From: Thermoanaerobaculia bacterium
Lineage (GTDB): Bacteria > Acidobacteriota > Thermoanaerobaculia > UBA5066
Direction of reading: 5' to 3'
NCBI GenBank assembly: GCA_963719225.1
Contig: CAVRAY010000001.1
Location: 1,696,001 to 1,760,000, forward strand
Length of the DNA: 64,000 nucleotides
The notes under the pieces were generated by a model. That model searched no databases, had not been told where the DNA came from, and saw only the letters and a program-made list of their open reading frames with translations. The number at the start of each line of letters is the position of its first letter. Position 1 is the stretch's first letter. Below, in pieces: positions 1,473 through 61,147 of this stretch. Both the position numbers and the translations under genes were made by a program.

Positions 1473-3079
1473 CCTTCGAGCCCGGCCATCAGGCGTCCGA
1501 GCTCGGTGGAGGGCGCTGTCCGCTCGAGTACGGCCGAGAGACGGCCTCGGTAGACGACACGAATCGGCGCGCCGAAGAGCTGGGCTTCGTCGGGATCCGC
1601 CGTAACGACGAGCGCCGCCGTCCCCGAGCGGCACGCGTCGAGGATCCGGATCCTGACCGCGGCGGCGGAGGCGACATCGAGGCCCCTCGTCGGATGGACG
1701 GCGAGAAGAACGACGGGCGGATTCGCGAGCTCGCGCGCGAGCACGGCCTTCTGCTGATTCCCGCCGGAGAGAGAGCCGGCCGGGGCTTCGGGAGAAGCGT
1801 AGCGGACGCCGAACGCGCTCAGCCGCTCCTCGGCATGAGCGCGCATCTTCGCGCGGTCGAGGAAGATGCGGCCTGGAGGATTCGGCAGCGAGAGATTCTC
1901 CGAGAGGGGCAGCGCCGCCACGAGCCCCTCGTCGCGCCTGTCCGCGGGCACGAAAGCTCCCCCACAGGCGCGAAACGCGAGCGGATCGCCCGCGGTCGGG
2001 AGCGGTACCCCGCCGATGTCCACGCGTCCCGAGAACGGCTCGAGCCCCGCGATCGCGCGGGCGATGTCGTCGGCGCCGTTTCCGTCGATCGCGAGGAGGA
2101 CGAGGAGCTCGCCGGGAAGAAGAGAGAAAGAAATTCTTTCTGTTCGGACCGCTCGCGCCTGCTCTGGTCCGAAGCCGCTGACTTCGAGGCTTTTGACAGG
2201 GCGTTGCGCGGCGCTTCGCGCCGCGTGCCTAGAAGGGTGAGTCTTGCTGGTGCGCGTCGGTGTGCCGGAGCGCCTCACGAGCGGCACGTCGCCCTCTTCA
2301 CCCTCTAAGAAAATCTTCTCTTTCTCTTCTTCTTTTCTGCTCCCTCCGATTTCCGCGTTTGCGAGCAGAAGGTTCCCGATCTCCTCACGAGTCGTCTCGC
2401 CGATCAGACAGGTCTTCAACGTCCGGCCCCGCGCGAGGAGCGTCAGCCTGTCGGCGCCTGCGAACACTTCGGCGAGCCGGTGCGTGATGACGACGACGGC
2501 GGCACCGACCTCAGTGCGCTTTCGCAGCGCGGAAAAGAGGGCTGCCGTCTCGTCGGGAGAGAGGACCGCCGTCGGCTCGTCGAGGATCAGGACGTCCGGG
2601 TTGCCGGCGAGGGCGCCCGCGATCTCGATGCGCTGGCGGGTCCCGACGGGCAGCGATTCGGCGCGGGCATCCGCGTCGCCCAGCTCGAGAGCGAACGCCT
2701 GTGCGAGGCGGCCGACGCGCGCGCGCCGCGACCCAGCGGATTCGAAGAATGGCGCCGCGGAATCGAGAAAAGCGAGGTTGTCGGCGACGCTCGCGGCCCC
2801 GATCAGTAGATCGTGCTGCGGCACCAGAACGAGCCCGGCACGGCGGGCGTCGCGCGCGCCGCGAAACGACACCGGGGTCCCCCCTCGCAGGATCTCGCCT
2901 GAATCGGCCGCGAGCCTCCCCGCGGCGATCGACACGAGCGTGGATTTTCCCGCGCCGTTCTCGCCGAGGAGGGCGTGGATCTCTCCGGGAAAGACGACGA
3001 GATCTGCTTCGGAAAGAGCCTGTGTATCGCCGAAGCGCTTCGAGATGCGGCGGAGCTCGAGAGCCGCTCTTCTCGTCAG
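1469..3079 (-). CDS. ABC transporter ATP-binding protein with two ABC domains (MglA/YufO-like)
   Basis: Walker A GENGAGKST, 'LILDEPT' and 'LSGGNQQK' motifs. Start uncertain (CTG at 3079 overlapping the BMP stop, or slightly downstream). Interdomain linker is unusually long. Confidence 0.88.
   Translation of the reverse strand: MTRRAALELRRISKRFGDTQALSEADLVVFPGEIHALLGENGAGKSTLVSIAAGRLAADSGEILRGGTPVSFRGARDARRAGLVLVPQHDLLIGAASVADNLAFLDSAAPFFESAGSRRARVGRLAQAFALELGDADARAESLPVGTRQRIEIAGALAGNPDVLILDEPTAVLSPDETAALFSALRKRTEVGAAVVVITHRLAEVFAGADRLTLLARGRTLKTCLIGETTREEIGNLLLANAEIGGSRKEEEKEKIFLEGEEGDVPLVRRSGTPTRTSKTHPSRHAARSAAQRPVKSLEVSGFGPEQARAVRTERISFSLLPGELLVLLAIDGNGADDIARAIAGLEPFSGRVDIGGVPLPTAGDPLAFRACGGAFVPADRRDEGLVAALPLSENLSLPNPPGRIFLDRAKMRAHAEERLSAFGVRYASPEAPAGSLSGGNQQKAVLARELANPPVVLLAVHPTRGLDVASAAAVRIRILDACRSGTAALVVTADPDEAQLFGAPIRVVYRGRLSAVLERTAPSTELGRLMAGLEG
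2207..2338. repeat. Paired dispersed motif, locus 1 (ABC ATPase linker)
   Basis: Plus copy CCTAGAAGGGTGA (2228-2240). Minus copy AGAAGATTTTCTTAGAGGGTGAAGAGG with a long purine tract. Confidence 0.75.
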
Positions 3080-4053
3080 AAATTCCCCCGTGGCACGACG
3101 AGGGCTCCTGCCTTGATCCTCTCTCCCGTCGTTTTCGCCTCTTCGACGACCGGAGGCGGGACCCTTGCGAGCGCGGCCGGATTCCACACGAACGAGATCA
3201 CGCCGCTCGAAAGGCCGTAGCGCAGAGGTTGGCCGTCGAACTTCCCGTCCCTGGCGCGGCGCGCAGTCTCGACGAACGCGCGCGGCATGTCGATGACGGC
3301 CGACGCGAGGACGGCCGGGGAGAGAGCGTTCTGGTCCTTGTTAGTGCCGAAGGCCCAGATCGTCCGTTCTTCGGCCCCCTTGAAGACGCCGAGCGCCGCG
3401 GCATCCGCGTTCTGGAAGAGGAAGTCGCACCCCCTGTCCGCGAGCGCGAGCGTGGCGGCCTTCGCCCCCGCGACGTCCTCGAAGGAGCCCGTGAAGACGG
3501 GCTGTGTGCTCCCGCCGGGACGTCCCGCCCGAAAGCCCGCCTCGAAAGCGAGGAACGTGGACTTGATCGAAGGAAGCTCCACGCCGCCGACCATTCCGGC
3601 CTTGCCGGACTTCGTCATTCGGCCCGCCACGAGGCCGCACAGATATGCGGCCTGTTCCAGCTCGAAGACGATGGGCGCGAGGTTCGGTCCCGTCCGCGAG
3701 CCGGAGGTCGTCACGAAGATCGTCTTCGGGTATTCCTTCGCCACGCGCGCCGCAGCGTCCTGGAACTCGAACCCGTGGCCGAACACGAGGCGCGTGTCCT
3801 TCGCCGCGTAGGCGCGGAACTGCTCCTCGAACTCCGAAGGCGATTTCACCTGCACGTGGGAGATGGAGGCTCCCAGCTCTTTCTCGATCGCCTTGAGGCC
3901 GTCGTAGGCGCCGGCGTTCCAGCCGGCGTCCGAAATGGGTCCGGGCGTCAGAAGCGCGACGCTGAATCCGGCGGGACGGGCAGGCGTTTCGTTCCTGCCG
4001 CAGGAGACGAAGAGGAGGGCGGCGGCCGCCGGGAGGAGGGCGCGACGCTTCAT
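3076..4053 (-). CDS. BMP-family ABC substrate-binding lipoprotein (nucleoside-binding)
   Basis: Lipobox LFVSC, 'GPISDAGWNAGAYDGL' and 'GHGFEF' motifs. Heads the ABC operon. Confidence 0.9.
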   Translation of the reverse strand: MKRRALLPAAAALLFVSCGRNETPARPAGFSVALLTPGPISDAGWNAGAYDGLKAIEKELGASISHVQVKSPSEFEEQFRAYAAKDTRLVFGHGFEFQDAAARVAKEYPKTIFVTTSGSRTGPNLAPIVFELEQAAYLCGLVAGRMTKSGKAGMVGGVELPSIKSTFLAFEAGFRAGRPGGSTQPVFTGSFEDVAGAKAATLALADRGCDFLFQNADAAALGVFKGAEERTIWAFGTNKDQNALSPAVLASAVIDMPRAFVETARRARDGKFDGQPLRYGLSSGVISFVWNPAALARVPPPVVEEAKTTGERIKAGALVVPRGNF

Positions 4054-4088
4054 GTCTCGATTATGCCGTCGCGACCTATCATCGAAAG
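4054..4088. promoter_or_regulatory. Back-to-back leaderless promoters
   Basis: CATAAT on the minus strand (4065-4060) and TATCAT on the plus strand (4077-4082), each exactly 6 nt before its ATG. No Shine-Dalgarno possible. Confidence 0.6.
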
Positions 4089-4694
4089 ATGACTTTCGAC
4101 CTCGACGCGACGGCTCGAGAGCGCATCCGCGACTTCGTGAGGCCCCTCTCCGTCGGTCTCGACGGCGTCACGAACTTCGGCTACGTGGAGAGAAGACTGA
4201 GGATTTCGGAGAGGTTCTTAGAAGGTGAAGAAGGGGAGGGAGGCGCTGCGGGCGGCCTGCGGGCCGACCCGAACCGCCTGTTCCTTCTCGCCGCGTTTGC
4301 CGGCCTCCCGTCAGTGCGCCGCATCACCCACGATAGCCGCGAAGAGCTGCTCCTGCGCTCCCTTCACATTCCATTCGAGGAAATCACCTCTCTTTCTCTT
4401 TCTCTTTCCAACCTCGAGTCTTCGCCCGAATCGCCCGAGGAGAAGATCGTCCACGACGCGATGCTCCTCGAGTCCGTGGGCGCATATGGAGTCACCCAGC
4501 TCCTCGTCGCGGGCGCGCGCGAACGGATGACGCTGGCCGAGATGGCGCGGGAGATCCTGGAGAAGATGGAGTCGGCCGTCTTCACGACCGCGGCCGCCCG
4601 GGGCCTGGCGGCCGATCGAGTCGCCTTCGCGACGCTCTTCGCGCGGAAGCTCGCCGAGGAGGCAGCGGAATTCGAGGCCGTCGCGCCGAGGTGA
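4089..4694 (+). CDS. HD-domain-fold protein lacking catalytic His/Asp residues
   Basis: 'PESPEEKIVHDAMLLESVGAYGV' resembles the C-terminal motif of YedJ-type HD hydrolases. The HD motif position reads 'LAAFAGL'. Confidence 0.55.
   Translation: MTFDLDATARERIRDFVRPLSVGLDGVTNFGYVERRLRISERFLEGEEGEGGAAGGLRADPNRLFLLAAFAGLPSVRRITHDSREELLLRSLHIPFEEITSLSLSLSNLESSPESPEEKIVHDAMLLESVGAYGVTQLLVAGARERMTLAEMAREILEKMESAVFTTAAARGLAADRVAFATLFARKLAEEAAEFEAVAPR
4211..4408. repeat. Paired dispersed motif, locus 2 (HD-like gene)
   Basis: Plus copy TTCTTAGAAGGTGAAG (4215). Minus copy GATTTCCTCGAATGGAATGTGAAGG with a purine tract. Confidence 0.75.
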
Positions 4695-5104
4695 CTCCGG
4701 CGCCGTCATACGGATCGGCCCGAAAAGCCACTCAGAGGCGAAGCGCAGCCCGAGTAGGCGACGAAGACCTCCGGCGGCTCTTCGCGGAGAGGCGGGTGTC
4801 GGACGAAAAGGAGGCGCCGCCGTTCCGAGGGCTCCTCGAGAGCCAACGGTCCGGCGCCCGCCCGGCGCGGAGAGTCGTGCCGAGGCTGGTCGTCGCGGCC
4901 GCGGCGATCTTCGTGGTCGCCCTCTCGCTGGCGCTGTTTTCCCGAAGGCCGCGGCCCGACATCGACATCGGGGAATGGAAGGCGCCGACGGATTTCCTCC
5001 TCGAAGCCTCCTACCCGGACCTTTTCGACACGACGCCGCCGCTCCTGGAAGCGGTTCCGGACTACGCCCCCCTCCTGAAGACCGAGAAAGGAAGCACGTC
5101 ATGA
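4691..5104 (+). CDS. Small single-TM protein, anti-sigma-like
   Basis: One hydrophobic helix followed by 'WKAPTDFLL', immediately upstream of a Spy/CpxP-like gene. N-terminus uncertain. Confidence 0.45.
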   Translation: MTPAPSYGSARKATQRRSAARVGDEDLRRLFAERRVSDEKEAPPFRGLLESQRSGARPARRVVPRLVVAAAAIFVVALSLALFSRRPRPDIDIGEWKAPTDFLLEASYPDLFDTTPPLLEAVPDYAPLLKTEKGSTS

Positions 5105-5411
5105 GAATCAGCACGAAGGTCGCAGTGGTCACGACGCGCAGCGCCAGAGCATCCGTGCAGAGCTCCAGAAGACTCAGCCGAAGTTCCTGGACCTTCAGCT
5201 CGACATCCAGGCTGAGGTGGAGAAGATGACGCAGCTCCTCCAGGAAAAGCCCGTGGAAGAGGCAAAGGTCATGGCCCAGCTCGACCGCGTTCTCACGATC
5301 GAGAATCAGGCGAAGAAGACGCAGATCGCTCTACTCGTGAGGATCAAGAATCTCCTGACGCCCGGGCAGCAGACGAAGATGAGCGCCCTGCAGAAGGGCG
5401 AAGGAAGGTGA
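5101..5411 (+). pseudogene. Periplasmic heavy-metal-sensor (Spy/CpxP/ZraP-like) gene with an apparent frameshifting deletion
   Basis: ATG 5101 (RBS, ATGA overlap) gives MRISTKVAVV. The family-like sequence DAQRQSIRAELQKTQPKFLDLQ...LLVRIKNLLTPGQQ starts near 5133 in a different frame. Confidence 0.55.
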
Positions 5412-5414
5412 CGC

Positions 5415-6215
5415 TCAGTCTCCTTTGATCGATCGTCCCGCGTCGACCGAAACGACCTGGCCCGTCATGGAACGATTCTCGAGCACGGCGATGGCGATCT
5501 CCATGAGGTCTTTGACGTCGACTTTTCGCTCGAGAGGCGTCCTGGCGACGAGAGCGGCGACGGTTTCTTCCGGCATGTCGTCCGGGGGCATCACGATGCC
5601 CGGGGCGATCCCGTTCACGCGCACGTCCGGTCCGAGCGCGACGGCGAGGTTCCCGACGAGGACGTTGATCGCGGCCTTCGCGGCTACGTGCGGGATATGC
5701 GAGGGCCAGGCCTGCGTTGCCGCCACGTCGGAGACGAGGAGGATCGACCCCTGCGCCGCGCGAAGCGCCGGCGCCGCGGCCTGAGCCAGGAAGAACGCCG
5801 CGCGGGGGCCGGCGCGAAAGACGGCCTCCCAGTCGGAGAGCGTCACCGAAGAAAAGGGCTTCGGAATCCAGGGCGACGCGGCGTGGACGAGAGCGTCGAG
5901 GCGGGGAGAAGAGGGATGAAGAAGCGAAGGCGAAGAGGAAGAAAAAAGAGACGAAGAGAAGATTTCTTCGAATAGTTTGAGGGGCGCGTCGTCGGCGGCG
6001 AGATCGGCTCGGAACGCTTCGGCGCGGGCTCCCTCTTCCTTTCTAAGAAAATCTACTGCGCGACCTGCCGCGTCGGCATCGCTTCTGTAGGAAAGAGCCA
6101 GCGAATAGCCGCTTCTCGCGAGCGCCTTCGCGAACTCGAACCCGAGCCGCTTCGCGCCGCCCGTCACGAGGGCGACCCTCTCGACGGTCTTCGCTTCCCT
6201 CTTCGTGTCCCTCAC
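5415..6215 (-). CDS. Short-chain dehydrogenase, pteridine reductase (FolM/PTR1)-like
   Basis: 'ALVTGGAKRLG', 'VRVNGIAPG' and 'MTGQVVSVDAG' motifs. GTG 6215 overlaps the upstream stop. Confidence 0.85.
   Translation of the reverse strand: MRDTKREAKTVERVALVTGGAKRLGFEFAKALARSGYSLALSYRSDADAAGRAVDFLRKEEGARAEAFRADLAADDAPLKLFEEIFSSSLFSSSSPSLLHPSSPRLDALVHAASPWIPKPFSSVTLSDWEAVFRAGPRAAFFLAQAAAPALRAAQGSILLVSDVAATQAWPSHIPHVAAKAAINVLVGNLAVALGPDVRVNGIAPGIVMPPDDMPEETVAALVARTPLERKVDVKDLMEIAIAVLENRSMTGQVVSVDAGRSIKGD
5906..6054. repeat. Paired dispersed motif, locus 3 (SDR gene)
   Basis: Plus: about 55-nt purine tract then AGATTTCTTCGAA (core 5964). Minus copy GATTTTCTTAGAAAGGAAGAGGG (core 6041-6049). Confidence 0.75.
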
Positions 6216-6727: not shown

Positions 6728-6781
6728 GGCGTCCCACTATAATCCGTTCGGTTTGCGCACAGTGCGCCGGGAGGCTGCTTC

Positions 6782-8584: not shown

Positions 8585-8613
8585 GCCCCGGCTGAAGGGG
8601 AGAGCGGGAACGA

Positions 8614-9576: not shown

Positions 9577-9589
9577 CGGTGCGCCCGGT

Positions 9590-13038: not shown

Positions 13039-13057
13039 CCTTCGGATTATGGGGCGC

Positions 13058-13107: not shown

Positions 13108-13916
13108 CGGGCCGTGACGCGCTCCCCGAGCCGGCCCTCGCGGCCGGGGGGGAGGAGCGTTCTCCCGCCGGGGCGGATCCCGAAAAGCGCCGGCGCATCC
13201 TGGACGCCGCCGTCCGGACGTTCGGCCGGCGGGGATTCCACGAGGCCCGAATCGCGGAGATCGCGGCCGCGGCGAAGGTGGCCGAGGGCACCGTCTACCT
13301 CTATTTCCGCAACAAGGAGGACCTCCTCGGCGTCGTCTTCGACGAGTCGATGGACGAGGTCCTCGAGAAGGGGCGCGCGCTCGCGCGCACGAAAGGTCCG
13401 GCCGGAGAGCGGCTCACGGCGCTCGTGGACCTCCATCTCCAGTTCATCGGATCGGACCGCGATCTCGCGTCCGTTTTCCAGATCGAGCTGAGGCGGAGCG
13501 CGCGGCTCGTCGAACGCTTCTCGCGCAGCAAGCTCGTCGAGTATTTCCGCCTCCTCGGCGACGTCCTGCGCGACGGCATCGCGCGCGGCGAGTTCCGCAA
13601 GGATCTCGATCCGCGCCTCGCCGTCAGGATCCTCTTTGGCGCCGCGGACGAAATCCTCTCGGAGTGGCTGCTGTCGGGGGAGAAGAAGCCGATCGCGGAT
13701 GCACGTCAACTGGTGGGAACGCTTTTAGACGGGTTTGCTGATGAAGATTCTTTGAAAAGGAAGACTTCAGCGGGCGAGGCCCGGGCGCGCCGAAAAACGC
13801 AGCAGCTTCCCGGCGCGCACCCTCGAAATTCACCCTTCAAAGCACGCGCCGAAGGCGCGAACAGCGGCACGCGAAACGACAACATCGCCCTCAGGCGCAG
13901 GAGCAAACCCCAGTGA
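13092..13916 (+). CDS. TetR-family regulator, FadR(YsiA)-like, with a C-terminal extension of about 60 aa
   Basis: HTH 'IAEIAAAAKVAEGTVYLYFRNKEDLL'. First gene of the beta-oxidation operon. Confidence 0.88.
   Translation: MMAHSAGRDALPEPALAAGGEERSPAGADPEKRRRILDAAVRTFGRRGFHEARIAEIAAAAKVAEGTVYLYFRNKEDLLGVVFDESMDEVLEKGRALARTKGPAGERLTALVDLHLQFIGSDRDLASVFQIELRRSARLVERFSRSKLVEYFRLLGDVLRDGIARGEFRKDLDPRLAVRILFGAADEILSEWLLSGEKKPIADARQLVGTLLDGFADEDSLKRKTSAGEARARRKTQQLPGAHPRNSPFKARAEGANSGTRNDNIALRRRSKPQ
13743..13859. repeat. Paired dispersed motif, locus 4 (TetR C-terminal extension)
   Basis: Plus copy GAAGATTCTTTGAAAAGGAAG. Minus copy GCTTTGAAGGGTGAA. Confidence 0.65.
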
Positions 13917-15169: not shown

Positions 15170-17388
15170 TGTCCACGCTCGTCGACGAATCGATTCCTGC
15201 CACGGCACCGGCCGGCTCGCTTTCGCCCTTTCGGCTCTCGGTCGAGCCGGACGGCCTCGCGCTTCTCGTCTTCGACACGCCCGGCGAAAAGGTGAACAAG
15301 TTCTCGACGGCGGTGATGAGGGAATTCGAGCGCGTGATCGACGGCCTCGCGGCGCGCACCGACGTGAGGGCGCTCCTCCTTCTCTCGGCGAAGCCGGGGA
15401 TCTTCATCGCCGGCGCGGACGTGAACGAGATCGCGAAGGCCGACCAGAACGCGGACCCGGAGATGATCCGGGGCGGCCACCGGACGTTCAACAAGCTCGC
15501 GAACCTGCCGTATCCCACGGTCGCCGCGATCAGCGGCGCCTGCGTGGGCGGCGGCTGCGAGACGGCTCTTTCGATGGACTGGCGGCTCGCGTCCGACTCG
15601 CCGAAGACCCAGATCGGCCTTCCGGAGGTCAAACTGGGCATCCTGCCGGCGTGGGGCGGCACGACGCGCCTTCCGCGCATGATCGGCCTCGCGAACGCCA
15701 TCGACGTCATTCTCGGGGGGAAGGTCCTCGACGCGAAGCGGGCGAAGAAAATCGGCCTCGTGGATGAGGTCGTCCCGGAGGCGATCCTCGAGGAGTGGGC
15801 GAAGTCGTTCGCGCGCGGGAAGTTTGGGAGCCGGAAACGCTCGAACGCGGGCGCGGGCGGCGCTCCGGCGCGCGTGCGCGAGCCGAAGCTGACGGAGAAG
15901 CTCCTCGAGGGGCCGGGCAAGGGCCTCGTCTTCTCGAAGGCGCGCCAGGCGGTCCTGAAGGAGACGAAGGGCCATTATCCGGCGCCGCTCACGGCGCTCG
16001 GCGTCGTCGAGAAGGGGTTCGGCGAAGACTTCACGAAGGCGCTCGAGCTCGAGGTCGAAGGGGTCGGATCGCTCATCGGCACGCCGGTCATGCGCAGTCT
16101 CATGGGCCTTTTCTTCCGGATGGAAGAGGTCAAGAAGGAGACGGGCGTCGAGGCTCTCGGGGCGCCGGGGGCCGGCGTCAAGCCGCGGAAGATCGTGCGC
16201 GTGGGCGTCCTCGGCGCCGGCGTCATGGGAGGCGGCATCGCCCAGCTCGCGGCCGACAAGGGCTATCCGACGCGCATGAAGGACATCAAGGCCGATGCGC
16301 TGGCGCTGGGATTCGCGCAGGCGGCGCGCATCTGGAAGGAGCAGCTCAAGAAGCGCCGCATGACCCGCGCCGATTTCGCGAGGAAGATGGCGTTCCTCAG
16401 CGGGTCGCTCGAGTACGCGGGCTTCGAGGGCTGCGACATCACGATCGAGGCGGTCCTCGAGAAAATGACCGTCAAGCAGGCGGTCCTCGCGGACTGGGAG
16501 CGCGTCGCACCGGCGAACGCGATTTTCGCCTCCAACACCTCGACTCTTCCGATCACCGAGATCGCGTCGAAGGCGGCGCACCCCGAGCGCGTCGTGGGAA
16601 TGCACTTCTTCAATCCGGTGAACAAGATGCCTCTCGTCGAGGTCATCTACGGCGCGAAGACCGACCCCGAGGTGACGGCGACGATCTTCGACCTCGCGAA
16701 GAAGCTGGGGAAGACGCCGGTCGTCGTGAAGGACTCGCCCGGCTTCCTCGTGAACCGCATCCTCAGCCCCTACATCGGCGAATCGGTGCGTCTCCTCGTC
16801 GAAGGCAACTCCATGGAGTCCGTCGACAAGGCGATGCGGACCTTCGGGATGCCGGTCGGACCGATCGAGCTCCTCGACGACGTCGGAATCGACGTCGCGG
16901 CGAAAGCCGGCGGGACCATGGCGGCCGCGTTCCCGGAGCGCATGCCCGCGGACCCGGCACTCGAGAAGCTCGTCGAAGCCGGGCGGCTCGGGCGGAAGGC
17001 GAAGAAGGGATTTTATTTCTACGAAAGGGAAAGAAGGGGTGGCCCGGACCCGAACGCGTATCGCGATCTCGGCCTCTCAACACCTTCTAAGAATCTGAAT
17101 CTTTCTTCTTCCGTGATCCAGGAGCGTCTCGTCCTTCCCATGATCAACGAAGCCGCGTTCTGCCTGTCCGAGGGCATCGTCGCGAGCCCCGCGAAGCTCG
17201 ACTTGGCGATGATCTTCGGCACGGGCTTCCCGCCCTTCCGCGGTGGCCTGTGCGCATACGCGGACTCGCTGGGCGCCAGGGCGGTCGTCGAGGGCCTCGA
17301 GAAGCTCGCGAGGGTAAAGGGCGAACGCTTCAGCCCGGCCCCGCGCCTCGTCGACATGGCAAGACAAGGGAAGAGGTTCTTCGAATGA
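15169..17388 (+). CDS. fadJ: Fatty-acid oxidation complex alpha subunit (enoyl-CoA hydratase + 3-hydroxyacyl-CoA dehydrogenase, FadJ-like)
   Basis: Start ATG 15169 (TGATG overlap). 'FIAGAD', 'GLPEVKLG', 'GAGVMGGGIA' and 'GMHFFNPV' motifs. Confidence 0.9.
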   Translation: MSTLVDESIPATAPAGSLSPFRLSVEPDGLALLVFDTPGEKVNKFSTAVMREFERVIDGLAARTDVRALLLLSAKPGIFIAGADVNEIAKADQNADPEMIRGGHRTFNKLANLPYPTVAAISGACVGGGCETALSMDWRLASDSPKTQIGLPEVKLGILPAWGGTTRLPRMIGLANAIDVILGGKVLDAKRAKKIGLVDEVVPEAILEEWAKSFARGKFGSRKRSNAGAGGAPARVREPKLTEKLLEGPGKGLVFSKARQAVLKETKGHYPAPLTALGVVEKGFGEDFTKALELEVEGVGSLIGTPVMRSLMGLFFRMEEVKKETGVEALGAPGAGVKPRKIVRVGVLGAGVMGGGIAQLAADKGYPTRMKDIKADALALGFAQAARIWKEQLKKRRMTRADFARKMAFLSGSLEYAGFEGCDITIEAVLEKMTVKQAVLADWERVAPANAIFASNTSTLPITEIASKAAHPERVVGMHFFNPVNKMPLVEVIYGAKTDPEVTATIFDLAKKLGKTPVVVKDSPGFLVNRILSPYIGESVRLLVEGNSMESVDKAMRTFGMPVGPIELLDDVGIDVAAKAGGTMAAAFPERMPADPALEKLVEAGRLGRKAKKGFYFYERERRGGPDPNAYRDLGLSTPSKNLNLSSSVIQERLVLPMINEAAFCLSEGIVASPAKLDLAMIFGTGFPPFRGGLCAYADSLGARAVVEGLEKLARVKGERFSPAPRLVDMARQGKRFFE
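17001..17110. repeat. Paired dispersed motif, locus 5 (fadJ)
   Basis: Plus copy ATTTCTACGAAAGGGAAAG. Minus copy AGATTCTTAGAAGGTG (core 17085-17093). Confidence 0.72.
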
Positions 17389-17430
17389 GGGAGACCGGGG
17401 TTTTCTTCTATTCACTTTCTAAGAAATTCT
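17370..17430. repeat. Paired dispersed motif, locus 6 (fadJ end / intergenic)
   Basis: Plus copy GAGGTTCTTCGAATGAGG. Minus copy AATTTCTTAGAAAGTGAATAG. Confidence 0.7.
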
Positions 17431-19238: not shown

Positions 19239-20263
19239 GGAAACCGGGAATAGAGATTTCTGCGAATGAAAGAACGGGCCGCCGCGGCGCGCCGCGGCGC
19301 TCTTCCTCTTCACCATTCATAGAAACTCTTTCTCTTCCGACTCCCTTCCCCGTGGGACCCGTCAACGTTCACGTGATCCTGCGCGATCCCATCACGTTGA
19401 TCGATTCAGGACCTCTCACCGAGGAAGCCTGGGGTGCGCTCAAAGCCGGTCTCGCCGGCCTCGGCCTCGGAATCTCCGACGTGAAGCGCGTCCTGCTGAC
19501 GCACGGCCATCAGGACCATTACGGCCTCGCCGAGAAGATAGCCGGCGCGTCGGGGGCGAGGCTCTACGGCGGGAGGCTCGACCGCCGAAATTTCCGGCAG
19601 GAAAGGAGCCACGGCCTGCTCCTCGAGGACATGGCCCGGGCGGGGTTCGGGCTTCTGCCGCGCCTCGCGGTCGTCGCTTCCGTCACCGCCGTGGACCGCT
19701 TCGCGAAGCCGCTCGAAGCGTGGGACGAGCTCGCGGGGGGAGAGACCATGCCGGGAGACGGCTGGTCCGTCGTCGTGCGGTCGACGCCCGGCCACACGCC
19801 GGGCAGCCTCACGTTTTCGATTCCGGAGGCGGGGGTCGTCTTCACGGGAGACACCGTCCTGAAGGAGATCACGCCGAACGCGGTCGTCGACGAGGATCCC
19901 GAGAAGGCCGGGCGCCCTTTTCGCAGCGTCACGCGATATTTCGAGACGCTCGACGAGCTCGGCCGGACGAGCGGCGACGCGACTCTTCTCACGGGACACG
20001 GCGCGCCGGTCACGGACTGGTTCGCCCATCGTAGGACCCTCGACCGGCATCACGGACTCCGCATCGGGCAGATCGAACGGGAGCTGTCGAAGGGACCGGC
20101 GGCGGTATGCGACCTCGTGGCCGCGATCTTCCCCCGCGTGAAGACACTCGAAATCTTCCTCGCCTACAGCGAGATCCTCGGCTTCCTCATGTATCTCGAA
20201 GATGAGAAGCGCGTCGTGAAGCTCGCCGAGGAGACGCGGAACCGCTACCGGCTGGCTGGCTGA
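19229..20263 (+). CDS. MBL-fold metallo-hydrolase
   Basis: 'LTHGHQDHYG', 'TPGHTPG', 'FTGD' and 'GHG' motifs. Start uncertain (GTG 19229 overlapping the upstream stop). Confidence 0.85.
   Translation: MVLGKPGIEISANERTGRRGAPRRSSSSPFIETLSLPTPFPVGPVNVHVILRDPITLIDSGPLTEEAWGALKAGLAGLGLGISDVKRVLLTHGHQDHYGLAEKIAGASGARLYGGRLDRRNFRQERSHGLLLEDMARAGFGLLPRLAVVASVTAVDRFAKPLEAWDELAGGETMPGDGWSVVVRSTPGHTPGSLTFSIPEAGVVFTGDTVLKEITPNAVVDEDPEKAGRPFRSVTRYFETLDELGRTSGDATLLTGHGAPVTDWFAHRRTLDRHHGLRIGQIERELSKGPAAVCDLVAAIFPRVKTLEIFLAYSEILGFLMYLEDEKRVVKLAEETRNRYRLAG
19248..19336. repeat. Paired dispersed motif, locus 7 (MBL N-terminus)
   Basis: Plus copy GAGATTTCTGCGAATGAAAG. Minus copy GAGTTTCTATGAATGGTGAAGAGG. Confidence 0.65.
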
Positions 20264-20273
20264 CGCGATTTCC

Positions 20274-24419: not shown

Positions 24420-25615
24420 CGGCCGTTCTCGCCGTCATTCTGTTTCTGTGGCTTTTCCGCGCGTCAAACGTCGCTCTGAGCTTCGCCCTGATTCCGCGGA
24501 TCGCGCCGGCGCCTCGGCGAGAGCCCGGCGCGCCTTTCGTGTCGATCGTCGTCCCGGCGCGAAACGAGGAGCGCGACGTCGAGGGCGCAACGCGCAGCAA
24601 GTGCGCTCAGGATGATCCCTGTTTCGAAGTCGTCGTCGTGGACGACCGGTCCTCGGACGGCACGCGCCGCATCCTCGCGGGCCTCGAGCGAGAGCTCCCG
24701 GAGGTCCTCCGGGTCGTCGACGGGGTCGAGCCGCCGGTGGACTGGCTCGGAAAGCCGCATGCGCTCCACGAAGGCGCTCGCGCGGCCCGGGCGTCGCGGC
24801 CCCACGACTGGCTCGTCTTCTCGGACGCGGACGTGTACTTCGAGCCCGACCTCCTCGCCCGGTCCCTCGCACATGCGAATCGGCATGGGCTCGAGTTCCT
24901 GGCTCTTCTGCCGACCCTCGAGGCGAAGACCTTCGGCGAGAAGCTCATGGTCTCGACCGTCCCCGCCGCGGCGTTCTGCTACTTCCCCGGCTGGCTCATG
25001 AACGTCCCGTCCGCCCGTCGTTTCGGAGGCGGGGGAGGGATTTTCAATCTGATCCGGCGGGACCTCTTCGACCGCATTGGCGGGCATGAAGCGCTCAGGG
25101 CTTCGGTCGTCGACGACATCCAGCTCGGCCGCAATGCCCGCATGGGCGGAGGGCGGACGGGAATCGCGATCGCGATCGACTCGGTGCGAGTCCGCATGTA
25201 CCACGGATTCGGCGAGATCGTGAAGGGACTGGAGAAGAACGCGTACTTCGCCATGCTCGGCAGCCTCCCTTTGGCGGTGTTCGTCCTAAGCGAGTTTTTC
25301 TTAGAAGGTGAATTGCCCTTCGCGGTCCTTCTCGGCGGCGTGCTCGAACGGGCGCTGGCCCGCGGCGCCGCCGTGGCCCCTGCTTTCTTCACCTTCAAAG
25401 AAGTCCTTCTTTCTCTCTCCATCGTCGCGCTGACGATCCTCGTCCGCGGCGCCGTCGACCTTCGCCTCCGCCTGGGCCTCTTCTCGACTCTCCTGCATCC
25501 CCTTTGGGTCGCGGCTCTCTCGTGGATCTTCGGCCGCTCGGCCTGGGTCAACGGCGTTCTCCATCGCAATGAATGGAGAGGACGGGTTCGGGACGCGCGC
25601 GCCCTTCGGCCCTGA
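24416..25615 (+). CDS. Family-2 glycosyltransferase, membrane-bound (CrtQ/HpnB-like)
   Basis: 'SIVVPARNEE', 'VVDDRSSDGT', 'WLGKPHAL', 'FSDAD' and 'VVDD' motifs. GTGA overlap with the globin gene. Confidence 0.87.
   Translation: MTAVLAVILFLWLFRASNVALSFALIPRIAPAPRREPGAPFVSIVVPARNEERDVEGATRSKCAQDDPCFEVVVVDDRSSDGTRRILAGLERELPEVLRVVDGVEPPVDWLGKPHALHEGARAARASRPHDWLVFSDADVYFEPDLLARSLAHANRHGLEFLALLPTLEAKTFGEKLMVSTVPAAAFCYFPGWLMNVPSARRFGGGGGIFNLIRRDLFDRIGGHEALRASVVDDIQLGRNARMGGGRTGIAIAIDSVRVRMYHGFGEIVKGLEKNAYFAMLGSLPLAVFVLSEFFLEGELPFAVLLGGVLERALARGAAVAPAFFTFKEVLLSLSIVALTILVRGAVDLRLRLGLFSTLLHPLWVAALSWIFGRSAWVNGVLHRNEWRGRVRDARALRP
25293..25420. repeat. Paired dispersed motif, locus 8 (GT2 gene)
   Basis: Plus copy TTCTTAGAAGGTGAA (25298-25312). 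Minus copy TTCTTTGAAGGTGAA (25402-25388) with a purine tract. Confidence 0.8.
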
Positions 25616-38290: not shown

Positions 38291-38460
38291 GAGAGAGAAA
38301 GAGAAGAGAAGATTTCTTTGAAGGTGAATAGGACAGTGGGAAACCCACGGCGCGCGACGCGTGTTTCGGTTCTCGTCGCGCTGTGCGTCACGCTCACCTG
38401 CGCGGCGCCGACGGCCCCCGCCGCGGAGGCGCGTCACGCGCCTTCCAAGCATAAATCTTC
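38291..38460. repeat. Paired dispersed motif, locus 9 (cdd / deaminase junction)
   Basis: Plus copy GAGAGAGAAAGAGAAGAGAAGATTTCTTTGAAGGTGAA. Weaker minus copy GCTTGGAAGG near 38441-38450. Confidence 0.72.
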
Positions 38461-42998: not shown

Positions 42999-45575
42999 TT
43001 GACGCTCGCTCCCGGCTCGAAGCTCGGCCCGTACGAAGTCGTCTCGCTTCTCGGCGCGGGCGGAATGGGTGAAGTCTGGAAGGCTCGTGACGCGCGACTC
43101 GGAAGAGAAGTCGCGATCAAGGTCCTGCCGGAAAATTTCTTGGAAGGTGAAGAGAGAAAGCAGCGCTTCGAGCGCGAGGCGAAGCTGTTGGCGAGCCTGA
43201 ATCATCCCGGAATCGCAACTCTCTACTCATTCGAAGAAATCCCCGGTTCTCCCGGTTCTCCTCCCCGGCACATCCTCGTCATGGAGCTTCTCGAAGGCGA
43301 GACGCTGCGCGAGCGGCTGCGAGCGGGGCCGCTGCCGCCGCGCAGAGCCGTCGACTTGGCCGTCCAGATGGCGAAGGCCCTCGCTGCGGCGCACGAGAAT
43401 GCAATCGTCCACCGGGATCTGAAGCCCGAGAACGTTTTCCTGACGAAGGACAGCCGGGTCAAGATCCTGGACTTCGGTCTCGCGAAGCTCACGCGGCGGG
43501 AAGCAGCGGTGGAGAAGCTCACGGAGGCCGGGACGCTGTCCGTCCTGACCGACGCGGGCGCGGTGTTCGGGACGGCGGGTTACATGTCTCCGGAGCAGGT
43601 TCGCGGCGAGCCTGTGGACGCCCGCTCGGACATCTTCAGCTTCGGCACGATCGTCTACGAGATGCTTTCCGGAAAGAACCCGTTCCGGGCGGCCACGACA
43701 GCCGAGACGATGACGGCCATCCTCAAGGAGGACCCGCCCGAGATTAGCGCGAGCCAGCCGAGCGCTTCTCCGGCGCTGGAGCGGATCGCCCGCCGGTGTC
43801 TGGAAAAGAACGCCGAGCAGCGTTTCCAGTCGGCGCGCGACGTGGGCTTCGCGCTCGAGGCGCTTTCGGGCTCCGCTTCCAAGGACACTGTCGCGGCTCC
43901 GAACAAAGCAGGCGGGTTCCTGCCGCGGCGTCCTTTCGCGGTCTTGGCCGCGAGCGTGTTGCTGGCTGCGGCGCTCGGTTTCCTGGGCGGCAAGGAGTTC
44001 ATGCCCTCGGCACTCCCGACCTTCAAGCGCCTCACGTTCCGACGGGGCTCGAACCAGTCCGCCCGGTTCGCGCCCGACGGGCAGACGGTCGTCTATGGCG
44101 CGGCGTGGGACGGCGGGCCGATTCGGGCCTACTCCACGGGCCTGAGCGGCCCCGAGTCGCGGCCGCTGGACCTCCCGAACGCCGACGTCGTGGCGGTCTC
44201 TCGCTCGGGCGAGCTCGCCATCCTCCTGAACCGGAATGACGGGGGTGTTCCCTTGAACACGGGCACCCTCGCGCGCGTGCCGCTCGCAGGCGGCGCCCCC
44301 CGCGAGCTCCTCCGGAATGTCTATGACGCGGACTGGTCTCCCGACGGGAAGGAGCTCGCCGTAGTGCGGCGTGACGGAACCCTCAGTCAGCTCGAGTTTC
44401 CGATCGGGACCATGCTCTACCGAGGCGCGTTTTACCGTGCCCGTGTCTCCCCGGACGGGAAACTCGTGGCCTTCCTGGAGAACGCAGTCGGCCTCTGCGT
44501 CGTGGACCGAGCGGGCAAGAAGCGGCAGCTCACCGATTGGCGCATGCGGTTTCCCATCGGCGGCGTCGCGTGGTCGCCGAAGGGCGACGAGGTCTGGTAC
44601 GCGGGGAGCGAGGGCATCGGCGACTCCCTCTACGCCGTTACGCTTTCGGGGAAGCAGCGGGTCGTGGCTCGCTTCCCTTCCTTTGCCGTCCTCCAGGACA
44701 TCTCGCCGGGCGGCCGCGTCCTCGTCACGCTCGGCGAGCTGCGGAGCGGGATCATCGGGCTTCCCCCGGGAGAAACCCGTGAGCGCGATCTGTCCTGGCT
44801 CGACTATCCCAGTATCGTGGTCCTCTCGAAAGACGGGACGACACTCCTCTTCCACGAGTCGGGGGAGGGAGTCCGTGGCACAAGGACACTCTATCTCCGG
44901 CGGACCGACGGGCTCTCGCCGCCTGTAAGGCTCGGCGAGGGGTCTGGAGAGGCCCTTTCGGATGACTTGAAGTGGGTGCTCGCGATGCGGAAGGGTGTCA
45001 AGGCGGAATGGCTTCTCTGGCCCACGGGAGCCGGGGAATCGAGGGTCGTCCGCGGGTCGGACCTCGAGCTCGAAGGGGGAGAATTCTTCCCCGACGGCAA
45101 ACGGCTCCTCCTGGAGGGCCGGCAGCCGGGGCGGCCCGCGAGGCTGTTCGTCATGGACCTTCCAGATGGAGAGCCGCGCCCGCTCACGCCTGAAGGCATC
45201 GTTTTTCTCAACGGACAGGCAGGGGTCTCTCCCGATGGTCGGTCCGTCGCGGCGAAGGGCCCCAACGGAGAGATCCTCATTTTCGGCGCGGACGGTGGAG
45301 AGCCCCGGACACTTCCGGGCCCTTGGGAATCCCGGGTTGGCCCGTGGAGCGCGGACGGGCGATCGTTTTACGTGTCGGAGCGCCAGGGGACTGTCATCAA
45401 GGTATTCCGGCGAGACCTCGCGAGCGGCCGCCGGGAGCCCGTCCGGGAAATCACCCCCTCCGATCCGGCCGGCGTTTTCGCGATTACCTCGCTCCTTTCC
45501 CAGGACGGGGCGTCCTACGTGTATGCCTACTGGCGCCACCTCTCGAACCTCTACGTCGTTGACGGGTTGAAATAG
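42999..45575 (+). CDS. Hanks-type Ser/Thr kinase + TM + TolB/PD40 beta-propeller
   Basis: 'GAGGMGEV', 'VAIK', 'HRDLKPEN', 'DFGLAK' and 'YMSPEQ' motifs, a TM helix, and repeated 'SPDG'. Confidence 0.93.
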   Translation: MTLAPGSKLGPYEVVSLLGAGGMGEVWKARDARLGREVAIKVLPENFLEGEERKQRFEREAKLLASLNHPGIATLYSFEEIPGSPGSPPRHILVMELLEGETLRERLRAGPLPPRRAVDLAVQMAKALAAAHENAIVHRDLKPENVFLTKDSRVKILDFGLAKLTRREAAVEKLTEAGTLSVLTDAGAVFGTAGYMSPEQVRGEPVDARSDIFSFGTIVYEMLSGKNPFRAATTAETMTAILKEDPPEISASQPSASPALERIARRCLEKNAEQRFQSARDVGFALEALSGSASKDTVAAPNKAGGFLPRRPFAVLAASVLLAAALGFLGGKEFMPSALPTFKRLTFRRGSNQSARFAPDGQTVVYGAAWDGGPIRAYSTGLSGPESRPLDLPNADVVAVSRSGELAILLNRNDGGVPLNTGTLARVPLAGGAPRELLRNVYDADWSPDGKELAVVRRDGTLSQLEFPIGTMLYRGAFYRARVSPDGKLVAFLENAVGLCVVDRAGKKRQLTDWRMRFPIGGVAWSPKGDEVWYAGSEGIGDSLYAVTLSGKQRVVARFPSFAVLQDISPGGRVLVTLGELRSGIIGLPPGETRERDLSWLDYPSIVVLSKDGTTLLFHESGEGVRGTRTLYLRRTDGLSPPVRLGEGSGEALSDDLKWVLAMRKGVKAEWLLWPTGAGESRVVRGSDLELEGGEFFPDGKRLLLEGRQPGRPARLFVMDLPDGEPRPLTPEGIVFLNGQAGVSPDGRSVAAKGPNGEILIFGADGGEPRTLPGPWESRVGPWSADGRSFYVSERQGTVIKVFRRDLASGRREPVREITPSDPAGVFAITSLLSQDGASYVYAYWRHLSNLYVVDGLK
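43131..43242. repeat. Paired dispersed motif, locus 10 (kinase domain)
   Basis: Plus copy AATTTCTTGGAAGGTGAAGAG (core 43137). Minus copy GATTTCTTCGAATGAGTAGAG (core 43230-43238). Confidence 0.78.
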
Positions 45576-51992: not shown

Positions 51993-54086
51993 GTGCTGTA
52001 CCGGCTCGAAAACGTCAGGAAAAGCTTCGGGACGAAGGACGTCCTCGTGGATGCGACGTGGCAGCACGATCCGGGGCGAATCGTGGGCCTCGTGGGGCGG
52101 AACGGCGCGGGGAAGTCGACCGTCCTGAAGATCGTTCAGGGCCTCGTGGAGCCCGACGGCGGCAAGCTGTATGTGGCGGGTGGAACGACCTTTGCCTCGC
52201 TGGACCAGGCGGTCGAGCCGGAAGGCTACGAGCCTCTCCGCACTTTCGTCGCGCGCGCGCAGGAGCCTCTTCTCGCGTTCGAGCGCGAGATGAGGCGCCT
52301 GGAGGAGGCCATCGCCACGCACGGGGCCGACGGCGACCGCGCCGCGCTCGACGCGCTCCTCGGCGAGCACGACGAGGTGCGCGAGCATTTCCAGCGCGCG
52401 GGCGGCTACGAGGCGGACGCCCGCGTGGACCGGGTGCTCATGGGCGTCGGCCTCGTGCGGGCGATGTGGGACCGGCCCGTGGGAGAGCTCTCGGGCGGCC
52501 AGAAACATCGTGCCCAGATCGCACGGCTTCTGCTGACGGACGCTTCGGTTCTCCTCCTCGACGAGCCCACGAACCACCTCGACGTGGACGGAATCGAGTT
52601 CCTCGAGAGCTGGCTCGTGGAGCGGAAGACGAGCACCGGCCTCTCGGCTCTCGTGGTCTCGCACGACCGCCGCTTTCTGGATGCCGTCGCGGACCGCATC
52701 GTCGAGGTCGCGCACGGCCGTCTCGAGGACTATCCGGGCGACTACGCCACGTACCGCAAGCTCAAGGCCGAGCGCGAGCGTCTCCGCGCGAAGGAGGCCG
52801 AGAAACAGCGGCAGATGATCGAGCGGACCGAGGAGTTCATTCGCCGCAACATCGCCGGACAGAAGACGAAACAGGCCCAGGGGCGACGGAAGATGCTGGC
52901 GCGGATCGAGAGGATCGAGGCGCCGCGGGAGGATGCGAACGAAGTCTCGATCCGCTTCGAGGAGGCGCGCGTCTCCGGAGGGCGCGTGCTCGAGGCGAAG
53001 AAGCTCGTGCCGGGCTACCGCGAGACGGGACCGCTCCTCGAGCCGGTATCGTTCCTCCTGCGCCGCGGGGACCGCCTCGCGCTCTGGGGGCCGAACGGCT
53101 GCGGCAAGACGACGCTCCTCAAGACGCTCGCACGCGTGCTGCCTCCGATCTCCGGCTCGGCAGTGCCGGGCACGGGCGTCCTCATCGGCTACTACGACCA
53201 GGAGATGGGAGATCTTCCGGTCGAGGCGACGGCGCTCGACGCCGTGATGGACCTCGACCCTACGATGAAGGAGAGCGAAGCCCGCGACTTCCTCGCGCTC
53301 TTCGACTTCCGCGGGGACGAGGTCTTCCAGAAGATCGCGACGCTCTCGGGCGGCGAGAAGGGGCGCCTCTCGCTCGCTCGCATCGTCTTCGGCGGGGCGA
53401 ACTTCCTGCTCCTGGACGAGCCCACGAACCACCTCGACCTCGACGCGCGCGAGCAGCTCGAGGACGCCCTGGAAGCGTTCGAGGGCGCGATCGTCTTCGT
53501 GAGCCACGACCGCTGGTTCGTGGACCGCATCGCGACACAGATGCTGGAAATTCGGGACGGGAAGGCCGAGCTCCACGAAGGTAACTACTCGGATCTCGTC
53601 AGGAGGAAGAAGGAGATTCTTGCTCCCTCGCAGGACGATTCGGCGGGGCGCGACGACCTACAGTGGGGCAGGGGAGACGCGGTCTTTTCTTCGAAGGGTA
53701 AGAAAGACAAAGATAAAGATTCTTCGAAGGGTAAGAAGGGTAAGGGCGGCTCGGCGGGAGCCGCCGCAGCGAAGCCCGGCACCGCGCCTCATCCCTCTTC
53801 CCCCTCTAAGAAATCTTCCTCTTCTTCTCCGGACCGGACCGCCGAGAGGCGGCGTCTGAAGAACCAGAGAATCCTCGCCGACCTCGAAGACTCGATCACG
53901 CGCCTCGAGGAGGAGATCCGGTCGCTCGATCTCTCCCTCGCCAACCCCGACGTCTTCCGCGACGGAGACAAGGTCCGGCAGGTGAAATCGGCACGCGAGC
54001 AGGCGCGCCGGACACTCGAGGCGAAGCTGTGGGAATGGGAGGAGACGTCTCGCAAGCTCCAGACGGGCGCGGAAGTGCCGGCGTGA
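51993..54086 (+). CDS. ABC-F family ATPase (Uup/YdiF-like)
   Basis: Two ABC domains with 'LDEPTNHLD' and 'VSHDR', no TM, and a C-terminal coiled coil. Confidence 0.92.
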   Translation: MLYRLENVRKSFGTKDVLVDATWQHDPGRIVGLVGRNGAGKSTVLKIVQGLVEPDGGKLYVAGGTTFASLDQAVEPEGYEPLRTFVARAQEPLLAFEREMRRLEEAIATHGADGDRAALDALLGEHDEVREHFQRAGGYEADARVDRVLMGVGLVRAMWDRPVGELSGGQKHRAQIARLLLTDASVLLLDEPTNHLDVDGIEFLESWLVERKTSTGLSALVVSHDRRFLDAVADRIVEVAHGRLEDYPGDYATYRKLKAERERLRAKEAEKQRQMIERTEEFIRRNIAGQKTKQAQGRRKMLARIERIEAPREDANEVSIRFEEARVSGGRVLEAKKLVPGYRETGPLLEPVSFLLRRGDRLALWGPNGCGKTTLLKTLARVLPPISGSAVPGTGVLIGYYDQEMGDLPVEATALDAVMDLDPTMKESEARDFLALFDFRGDEVFQKIATLSGGEKGRLSLARIVFGGANFLLLDEPTNHLDLDAREQLEDALEAFEGAIVFVSHDRWFVDRIATQMLEIRDGKAELHEGNYSDLVRRKKEILAPSQDDSAGRDDLQWGRGDAVFSSKGKKDKDKDSSKGKKGKGGSAGAAAAKPGTAPHPSSPSKKSSSSSPDRTAERRRLKNQRILADLEDSITRLEEEIRSLDLSLANPDVFRDGDKVRQVKSAREQARRTLEAKLWEWEETSRKLQTGAEVPA
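53685..53829. repeat. Dispersed motif, locus 11 (ABC-F linker; two plus copies and one minus copy)
   Basis: Plus copies TTCTTCGAAGGGTAAG at 53687 and 53720. Minus copy GAAGATTTCTTAGAGGGGGAAGAGGG. Confidence 0.78.
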
Positions 54087-60760: not shown

Positions 60761-60769
60761 GATTCCGCC

Positions 60770-61105
60770 GTGCGGCTGACCCGGCTCCAGCGCCTGCTCG
60801 TCGTCCTCGCCCTCGCGCCGGTGGCGCTCGGCGGCGCGTTCGGGCACGTCGACGGCTTTGAGAAGCTGTCGCACGGCACGTTCCTGTTTCCGCCGGACCA
60901 CCCGGCGCACGCGCCTTTCGTCCCGCAGAAGGAGCATCCCTGCGCGGCGTGCGCGGTCGCGCACCTGACCGCTCCGGCTTCTGCTCCCGCCTATCTGGTT
61001 CCGCCCGACGTCCGTGCCGCGGAGATCGCGCGCGTCGAACGCGCGATCCCTTCCGCGACCCTTCCCGAGCTCTCCGGCCGCTCTCCTCCTGCCGCGACGG
61101 CATAG
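60770..61105 (+). CDS. DUF2946/CruR-like leader protein (signal peptide, CxxC, C-terminal RSPP)
   Basis: 'EHPCAACAVAH' and 'GRSPP' five codons from the stop. Directly upstream of a TonB receptor. Confidence 0.7.
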   Translation: MRLTRLQRLLVVLALAPVALGGAFGHVDGFEKLSHGTFLFPPDHPAHAPFVPQKEHPCAACAVAHLTAPASAPAYLVPPDVRAAEIARVERAIPSATLPELSGRSPPAATA

Positions 61106-61120
61106 CCGACTCACCCTCGT

Positions 61121-61147
61121 AAAGAAAAGATTTCTTGGAAGGTGAAT
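61121..61147 (+). repeat. Dispersed motif, locus 12 (intergenic)
   Basis: AAAGAAAAGATTTCTTGGAAGGTGAAT. No clear downstream partner. Confidence 0.7.

Follow-up and report, generated by a model that had tools for sequence, protein, structure and literature searches.

Chromosomal systems of the matS, Noc-binding site (NBS), parS and TrmBL2 type are not known to comprise more than tens of sites; matS sites are confined to the terminus and bound by MatP, and the orientation of Chi and KOPS is polarised along the replichores. MatP acts in the terminus region to unload MukBEF (PMC8669397); archaeal SMC is stalled by TrmBL2, and a boundary lies at dif (PMC11840125). Both parS and NBS are single 16-bp palindromes (PMC7383237). 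The uptake sequences of the Pasteurellaceae (USS) and Neisseriaceae (DNA uptake sequences, DUS) lie in resident genes and are scarce both in acquired genes and in those that are most conserved (PMC2817400, PMC2397512). One DUS is enough for uptake, and where DUS form inverted pairs these are terminators with close spacing (PMC2397512). REPINs are extragenic, their REPs are palindromic and they are linked to a RAYT (PMC3116915). The cyanobacterial HIP1 is an 8-bp perfect palindrome with a proposed role in chromosome structure (PMC5861425), and BoxC is present in Escherichia coli as 23 copies of a 36-base self-folding sequence (PMC4666352). We have analysed a window of 64,000 nucleotides (positions 1696001-1760000 of contig C1) from the genome of a Thermoanaerobaculia bacterium (G000; 4.75 Mb, 68% GC, two contigs C1 and C2), in which a long directional DNA site recurs in inward-facing pairs. 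Such site pairs, found throughout this genome, are selected at the DNA level, are lineage-specific and are unlike any family tested.

Facing pairs of a directional DNA site

An earlier note on the window had listed 12 loci with an AT-rich motif, 11 of them as inward-facing pairs written over protein-coding genes. All the loci and all the core-to-core distances were verified in the sequence; the pairs are present, with a weak partner in three of them and an extra plus copy at a fourth locus (Table 1). A matrix trained on the whole genome found 903 sites at a cut-off of 14 bits, against 45-63 with five column-shuffled matrices. Consecutive neighbours at most 300 bp apart were arranged plus-minus (inward) in 282 cases and minus-plus (outward) in 12. 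A filtered set (12 bits, at most two core mismatches, a G/T stretch removed) contained 920 sites forming 287 pairs. The 528 clusters, separated by a median gap of 4.7 kb, were mostly of the plus-minus type (210) or single (227), with 32 plus-plus-minus, 24 plus-minus-minus and a single minus-plus cluster. Even among 174 strong single sites a weaker inward partner was found in 23% and an outward one in 1%. The reversed genome was not used as a control, since the motif is similar to its own backward reading. The stretch removed (C1:56000-63500), which gave false matches, is made up of almost nothing but G, T and A (its plus strand lacks C) and is likely an assembly or base-calling artefact.

The core consensus TTCTT-N-GAA-R-G is directional, has a 3-base centre and lies within a purine-rich strand. 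Purines are enriched on the motif strand from about 30 bases outside to 20 bases inside the core, the whole site covers about 45 bases, and the outer flanks consist of tandem GA-rich units. The spacers have a GC content of 0.71 (against 0.66) and form no families except in paralogous genes and in a duplicated part of a contig. Few pairs are less than 63 bp apart, the tail of the distribution reaches about 250 bp, and 36 of the 66 intergenic pairs, whose sequence can change freely, are spaced by 68-85 bp (93-bp kinase pairs excluded). The core-to-core distances show no helical phase of 10-11 bp (p=0.36), and the periodicity of about 10.5 bp for which the earlier note had proposed a test is thus absent. 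A period of 30 bp (p=0.002 among the 12 periods tried in this genome) is not claimed, because the pairs of relatives peak at 113-116 bp, which is off phase (by eye, 75 of 416 pairs).

Placement relative to genes was based on our own gene calls, in which low-scoring gene ends may be miscalled as intergenic. The 920 sites are divided almost evenly between the sense strand (311), the antisense strand (303) and positions outside called genes (306). Thus, most sites (614) are coding, as the earlier note had it, whereas about a third lie outside genes, and 175 of the 287 pairs fall within one gene. Three synonymous-codon shuffles reduced the coding sites from 572 to 81-84, i.e. removed 85% of them. 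TTA codons are concentrated in the sites (82 of 265, or 31%), though these span only 0.37% of codons. In relatives within the genus, a site persists at the orthologous place even though its letters change: this holds for 13 of 13, 17 of 19 and 20 of 22 sites that could be aligned, a few of which belong to paralogous kinases. Equal use of sense and antisense, use of all frames, the forcing of rare codons and the persistence of sites through letter changes all support the view that the DNA and not the peptide is selected, and both the enrichment over codon-preserving shuffles and the inward bias proposed earlier are borne out.

The site density falls with conservation of the host gene, from 20-37 per 100 kb in genes with 55-75% identity to G050, a relative from the genus g12, to 4.4 and 0 per 100 kb at 75-100%. 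No link to promoters or terminators was found: a pair is present in 3-4% of intergenic gaps of every orientation. The long site-free gaps are accessory-looking regions, as judged by eye from their genes; one of them, the 66-kb region C1:3126000-3193000, seems from an inspection of its gene starts by eye to contain kinases as well as a type VI secretion cluster.

Chromosomal distribution, gain and descent of the sites

The replication origin was located on C2 near 327 kb, where a dnaA-like gene (which we take to be dnaA from its sequence), gyrAB, parAB and the only exact parS lie together. The skew switches at C1:2.10 Mb and dif is situated at about C1:2037565. The two orientations of the site are in balance on each replichore and to either side of the skew switch, so that the replichore bias considered in the earlier note takes the form of scarcity near the origin instead of polarity. 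Sites number about 10 per 100 kb in the vicinity of the origin and 25-30 per 100 kb in the terminus half; clusters thin out as the distance from the terminus grows (rho -0.75). Among genes with a G050 orthologue, the 112 kb lying more than 1.5 Mb from dif contain 3 sites (2.7 per 100 kb), compared with 17-25 per 100 kb nearer to it. In the relative G049, 2 of 96 matches fall in the 560 kb around the origin parB. The part of C2 at 600000-810000 is an inverted near-copy of C2 6-222 kb, with 70-84% identity and a second tmRNA; C2 beyond about 600 kb is probably chimeric and derived from a related species.

Sites arise in two ways. The cores in structured coding DNA were acquired by substitution: the dehydrogenase, short-chain dehydrogenase (SDR) and kinase segments align gap-free to motif-free outgroups (the dehydrogenase DNA alignment comprised 11 rows of the genus and 3 outgroup rows, and the comparison was repeated on proteins). 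The outer tracts are often added DNA. Compared with G050, 33 alignable pairs of the 150 within genes carry a median of 33 bp more, and at least 24 bp were added in 17 of these 33 pairs and in none of 106 control windows; pairs outside single genes carry a median of 68 bp more (20 alignable of 95). The tract additions in the SDR and ABC-F genes are missing from four or five outgroup genera and are therefore insertions in this genus, whereas the kinase and glycosyltransferase additions were compared with G050 only. In 15 of 45 non-coding alignments to named relatives, it is G000 that lacks the site, often being 100-190 bp shorter. Between species, half-unit indels are common besides the presence or absence of whole units, and the ends of 23 block indels, inspected by eye, are not fixed. 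Tract insertions and the gain and loss of blocks make the picture of pure overwriting incomplete: the spacers, regarded earlier as untouched host sequence, are indeed unrelated and GC-rich, but many spacers and tracts carry added DNA.

A 12-base pattern occurs 156-633 times per genome in the genus (29 genomes), 10-96 times in g12 (8 genomes) and 0-7 times in the rest of the family (26 genomes), with reversed-pattern controls at 0-13 and kin genomes that are not independent of each other. A 17-base pattern gave one match, in G025, in 16 genomes of other families; the unpublished genomes G025, G030 and G189 entered some tallies and the outgroup rows L144 and L145, and apart from this match the claims hold on published rows as well. 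A GTDB scan that covered 17 of 64 parts found the exact pair pattern at 118 loci, 110 of them in Acidobacteriota/Thermoanaerobaculia records, which makes this placement of the genome very likely. As all 29 genomes of the genus carry the motif, and relatives have it at orthologous positions, it is not an assembly artefact. Sequencing runs gave a best share of 0.19, with contigs only and relatives mixed. In viral contigs there were at least 120 single matches and also 15 matches to the pair; AT-rich contigs account for nearly all of them, and we read them as chance.

G050, which is 99% complete, has 29 sites in 1.6 Mb, compared with 448 in G000. Nevertheless, 46 of 82 orthologous positions in G050 score at least 0 bits, against 10 of 443 control positions, while in more distant outgroups none of 17 alignments at 5 sites does so. 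One pair is common to G000 and G049 and eroded in G050. Because of these residual scores and the shared eroded pair, the motif system likely predates both genera, as far as alignments can tell, and is decaying in part of g12; the alternative to residual sites is pre-adapted codons, and the outgroup sites are few. In a two-protein tree the motif-free G043 is sister to the genus, and losses or transfers of the motif may therefore have occurred. No replacement motif was detected in motif-poor genomes (1.6 Mb of G050, and 267 kb from 14 largely orthologous loci of other genera).

The loci of the window are listed in Table 1. Its segment 34001-36000 (GC 0.60), which has no called gene and lies between PKD-domain and nucleoside transporter genes, carries one unpaired 17.5-bit match at 34648. 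Outside the window, C1:2293000-2321000 near the terminus is a tandem array of about nine Ser/Thr kinase genes, each with a 93-bp pair and several with a second pair further in.

Table 1 Motif loci in the 64,000-nucleotide window (positions of the window; distances are core to core)
Type	Position	Cores (strand)	Distance	Location and remarks
Inward pair	2226..2311	2230 (+, weak, <6 bits), 2307 (-, 32.6 bits)	77 bp	Inside minus-strand ABC ATPase gene; minus copy reads FLEGEE
Inward pair	4215..4382	4219 (+), 4378 (-)	159 bp	Inside open reading frame 4089-4694 (no Pfam match); present also in G003 and G013
Inward pair	5964..6049	5968 (+), 6045 (-)	77 bp	In SDR gene; cores by substitution; outer tract is a Ser-rich in-frame insertion missing in five outgroup genera
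Inward pair	13748..13844	13752 (+), 13840 (-, weak, 6.8 bits)	88 bp	In C-terminal extension of TetR gene
Inward pair	17017..17093	17021 (+), 17089 (-)	68 bp	Inside enoyl-CoA hydratase/3-hydroxyacyl-CoA dehydrogenase gene; by substitution; position constant across genus
Inward pair	17377..17425	17381 (+, over stop codon), 17421 (-, intergenic)	40 bp	Partner 128 bp off, inside the next gene, in several relatives
Inward pair	19258..19324	19262 (+), 19320 (-)	58 bp	Start of metallo-beta-lactamase-fold gene
Inward pair	25298..25402	25302 (+), 25398 (-)	96 bp	In family 2 glycosyltransferase gene; spacer length varies among relatives
Inward pair	38314..38451	38318 (+, 35.9 bits, long outer purine tract), 38447 (-, weak, 9.4 bits)	129 bp	Between cytidine deaminase and amidohydrolase genes, or in amidohydrolase N-terminus
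Inward pair	43137..43238	43141 (+), 43234 (-)	93 bp	N-lobe of Ser/Thr kinase; recurs in paralogous kinases, which make up 14 of the 17 pairs with 93-bp spacing
Triple	53687..53812	53691 (+), 53724 (+), 53808 (-)	84 bp	Lys/Asp/Ser-rich linker of ABC-F ATPase, about 20-35 residues longer than in outgroup genera
Single copy	61132..61140	61136 (+, 24.5 bits)		Intergenic; clear partner lacking

Explanations for the paired sites

The bipartite protein-binding site suggested in the earlier note is still the best reading, and we give about even credence to the view that the sites are paired, directional binding sites for a putative chromosome-organising protein, which would act outside the origin domain. 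The arms match the consensus independently of each other, as is expected for independent protein sites: in 159 pairs that were left after removal of duplicates, positions outside the core showed no arm-to-arm covariation, whether inner (p=0.64) or near-outer (p=0.46). A sequence-specific protein would engage two facing sites at once, either by two flexibly joined DNA-binding heads or as two oriented protomers which bridge the sites or load something between them. This flexible arrangement is suggested by the minimum distance of about 65 bp and the missing helical phase. Binding may be extended or reinforced by the outer purine tracts, given that they are added even where this inserts a peptide in frame. 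Such complexes would act as local boundaries or anchors every few kilobases, and the sites would be disfavoured where the origin ParABS and SMC loading act.

Several observations weigh against this view. A rigid short loop is disfavoured, because the spacing has no 10.5-bp phase. Slight arm covariation is seen in the core (p=0.0045) and in the far outer flank (p=0.0055), and at least six arm bases pair in register in 87 of 110 minimum-energy single-strand folds, as the arms are inverted copies (the fold test had no swapped-arm control, and cut ends favour arm pairing). Whole intergenic units of 110-190 bp, one of them in frame, are present or absent as blocks in the manner of mobile elements. 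Origin scarcity is less clear in further relatives: G019 agrees roughly (12 of 86 matches in a 1.1-Mb bin), but its origin bin was chosen after the data had been seen, and the long contig of G055 has 56 matches in its first 2.6 Mb and 9 beyond, with none on the parB contig, but its end expected near the origin shows no depletion. Relatives with few or no sites do well. Finally, the reader protein was not found among the candidates compared across the family genomes, and no DNA-binding family among ParB2 (the product of a second parB gene), ComEC, PF00808, the Y1 transposase and a basic protein tracks the motif as the earlier note had envisaged. ParB2 occurs in 150 of 151 genomes of the class and the basic protein of 164 residues in 56 of 63 family genomes, both with and without the motif; ComEC is found in 57 of 63 family genomes regardless of motif count, and PF00808 histones in none of 5 genomes. 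As none of them tracks the motif, the Y1 transposase, ComEC, the histone and the basic protein were rejected as readers. The basic protein (L462:2045-2539, i.e. C1:3836045-3836539) is encoded next to tRNA-Gln and has no Pfam match and only Atlas matches under 0.9; with its two repeated helical parts and AT-hook-like tail, it is a candidate nucleoid protein. A gene-loss screen of 98 candidates missing from G050 (1.64 Mb, about 39% of that genome) contained no evident reader.

A DNA-uptake or recombination signal that spreads by molecular drive and is read by a bivalent receptor is an unlikely explanation, though one to be taken seriously. The preference for resident genes, the rarity in the most conserved genes, the absence from accessory-looking regions (by eye), the decay within a lineage and the presence of ComEC would all suit it. 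On the other hand, the pairs require a spacing of some 65 bp or more and are found within genes, whereas one DUS suffices (PMC2397512), the occurrence of ComEC is independent of the motif, and drive leaves the scarcity near the origin in core genes unexplained.

We consider it somewhat less probable that the pairs are a selfish non-autonomous insertion element of the REPIN or MITE (miniature inverted-repeat transposable element) type whose facing ends outlast a decayed interior. Some clean blocks, the shorter site-free non-coding alleles of G000 and the DNA added to pairs outside genes speak for such an element, as does the favoured spacing, which is also found in REP doublets (71 and 110 bp; PMC3116915). 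However, the spacers form no families (paralogues and the duplicated contig part aside). Where a pair lies in a kinase, dehydrogenase or SDR gene, its spacer is ancestral coding sequence and its cores were created by substitution; half-unit indels are common. The arms are not more alike within a pair than between pairs, and after permutation of the outer parts there was no excess of arm copying between loci beyond two insertion sequence (IS) families. Moreover, the Y1 transposase (PF01797) was not found in G000 or in 24 of the 28 other genomes of the genus, whereas 30 of the 34 family genomes outside the genus have it. This IS200/RAYT-type protein of about 320 residues, which occurs in 4 of 29 genomes within the genus, is thus anti-correlated with the motif.

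Both IS families carry the motif. An element of the IS110 family (L288:3421-4943, i.e. C1:1111421-1112943, and four copies at C1:2.198-2.210 Mb) is inserted at GTTAG-like sites near an integron-integrase-like gene; 70 bp in from its right end it bears a single strong copy of the motif, which is unpaired. The copy in an IS5-like element, itself present 9-10 times, is weak. In neither does a partner form across the joined ends.

The motif may also be seen as a CTCF-like convergent code, strong enough to alter and extend hundreds of proteins and read by a second ParAB, i.e. as a distributed centromere or SMC-boundary system outside the origin which expanded in one genus and is decaying in another; this is doubtful. 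The second parA-parB operon adjoins dif (L284:7565-9524, i.e. C1:2037565-2039524) across the family and in part of the order, and we found no literature description of a terminus-linked ParAB beside dif. Two site pairs flank dif directly behind parB2 in G000, and a site is present there in 22 of 26 loci of the genus. ParB2, whose DNA-binding helix is altered, keeps R173 and has R or K at position 201 (numbering by alignment), where G is described as invariant in ParB orthologues (PMC7383237); its target is therefore not parS. It has no other known target, and of six family-level columns which separate carriers from non-carriers, three are in the helix-turn-helix. The pairs flanking dif, these columns and the avoidance of the ParB1 origin domain support the proposal. 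It is weakened by the occurrence of ParB2 throughout the class and by a residue pattern that fails to hold beyond the family: the carrier state A179/R201 recurs in the motif-free family f2. The parB2-dif arrangement is also alike in carriers and non-carriers of the family. Since ParB2 occurs regardless of the motif, it stays a weak candidate. A 17-bp imperfect palindrome about 12 bp from the XerD arm of dif (C1:2037609-2037626), present in most family genomes, was considered as a ParB2 site and is more likely a LexA box, given its three copies (C1:1590214-1590315) upstream of a lexA-like gene, which we take to be lexA from its sequence.

Pairing of the arms in single-stranded DNA or RNA, or triplex-type non-B DNA, in either case with no specific protein, is improbable. 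The arms are complementary and pair in most of the folds mentioned above, purine/pyrimidine tracts are long, the weak core and far-flank covariation fits, and BoxC/TM motifs also occur in inverted pairs (PMC4666352). Still, there is no compensatory matching at variable positions, no G-U asymmetry by transcript strand (612 vs 580 and 114 vs 105 in 175 in-gene pairs) and no more structure in the spacers than in controls (z -0.16 vs 0.05), and the fixed pyrimidine core breaks the purine tract. The Rfam covariance models gave no match at gathering score in the window and one sub-threshold match elsewhere in 1-20000.

A recombinase flipping the spacer (intragenic invertons) is very improbable in spite of the inverted orientation and the near-dyad core: among 93 pairs with orthologous flanks, compared between species only, so that rare flips may have escaped notice, 29 spacers lie in the same direction, none is inverted and 64 are unaligned, the central core base does not match its partner beyond chance (z=1.6), no strand-change joint occurs among the 15 listed of 121 (metagenome contigs; weak evidence), and flipping a kinase N-lobe segment would break the kinase. 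The likeness of the motif to the dif arms is below zero bits.

The motif forces rare codons, alters core residues of kinases and dehydrogenases and inserts Ser/Lys/Glu-rich loops in many proteins. With a protein cost this large, the reader must either matter to the cell or drive strongly. If the sites are a chromosome-organising code, they would be a bacterial counterpart of convergent boundary sites and a pull-down bait for a new DNA-binding family; if they are driven, they would represent a new form of drive. The close relatives form a gradient (dense, weak, decayed, none) that puts the reader within reach of comparative genomics.

Comparison with known systems

To our knowledge, there is no bacterial chromosome with hundreds of orientation-dependent site pairs, and no description of this motif was found in the open-access literature. 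The earlier statement that it is not a DUS or uptake signal sequence (USS), Chi, KOPS, matS, parS or REP holds in the tests that could be run.

Chi and KOPS differ in their polarity from the motif, which occurs in both orientations, in balance, before and after the skew switch. BoxC and triplex motifs resemble it as purine-rich repeats, sometimes in inverted pairs and with unstable flanks, but here the core is AT-rich, there is no conserved self-fold and most copies are coding. HIP1 is likewise abundant and conserved in and between genes and has no known peptide, RNA or regulatory role; it stands alone, whereas here a long directional site occurs in facing pairs. The likeness to REPINs lies in the two inverted copies, the less conserved spacer, the favoured distance and the presence or absence as blocks. 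Unlike the REPIN-RAYT system, however, the motif is predominantly coding, with most of its pairs in one gene, its arms are not hairpins and no Y1 was found in most carriers. It is distinguished from MITEs by spacers that are unrelated except in paralogues and by the unfixed block-indel ends (by eye).

With matS/MatP, NBS/Noc, parS/ParB and TrmBL2 the motif shares sequence-specific sites that are uneven along the origin-terminus axis. In contrast to parS and NBS, about 900 asymmetric sites are present as spaced pairs, the consensus matches none of these systems and there is one true parS, at the origin. In contrast to matS, the sites extend across the whole chromosome, at a 2-3-fold lower density near the origin.

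The likeness to DUS and USS is found in hundreds of lineage-specific coding copies on both strands, which give recurring peptides and are rare in acquired and the most conserved genes. The motif differs from them in its facing pairs of 65-250 bp in genes, its tract insertions and its scarcity at the origin. Its pairs are not enriched between convergent genes, and ComEC, the competence gene tested, does not track it. In its manner of working the motif is closest to dispersed chromosome-binding sites, in its evolution it resembles uptake sequences, and each family considered fails a defining test.

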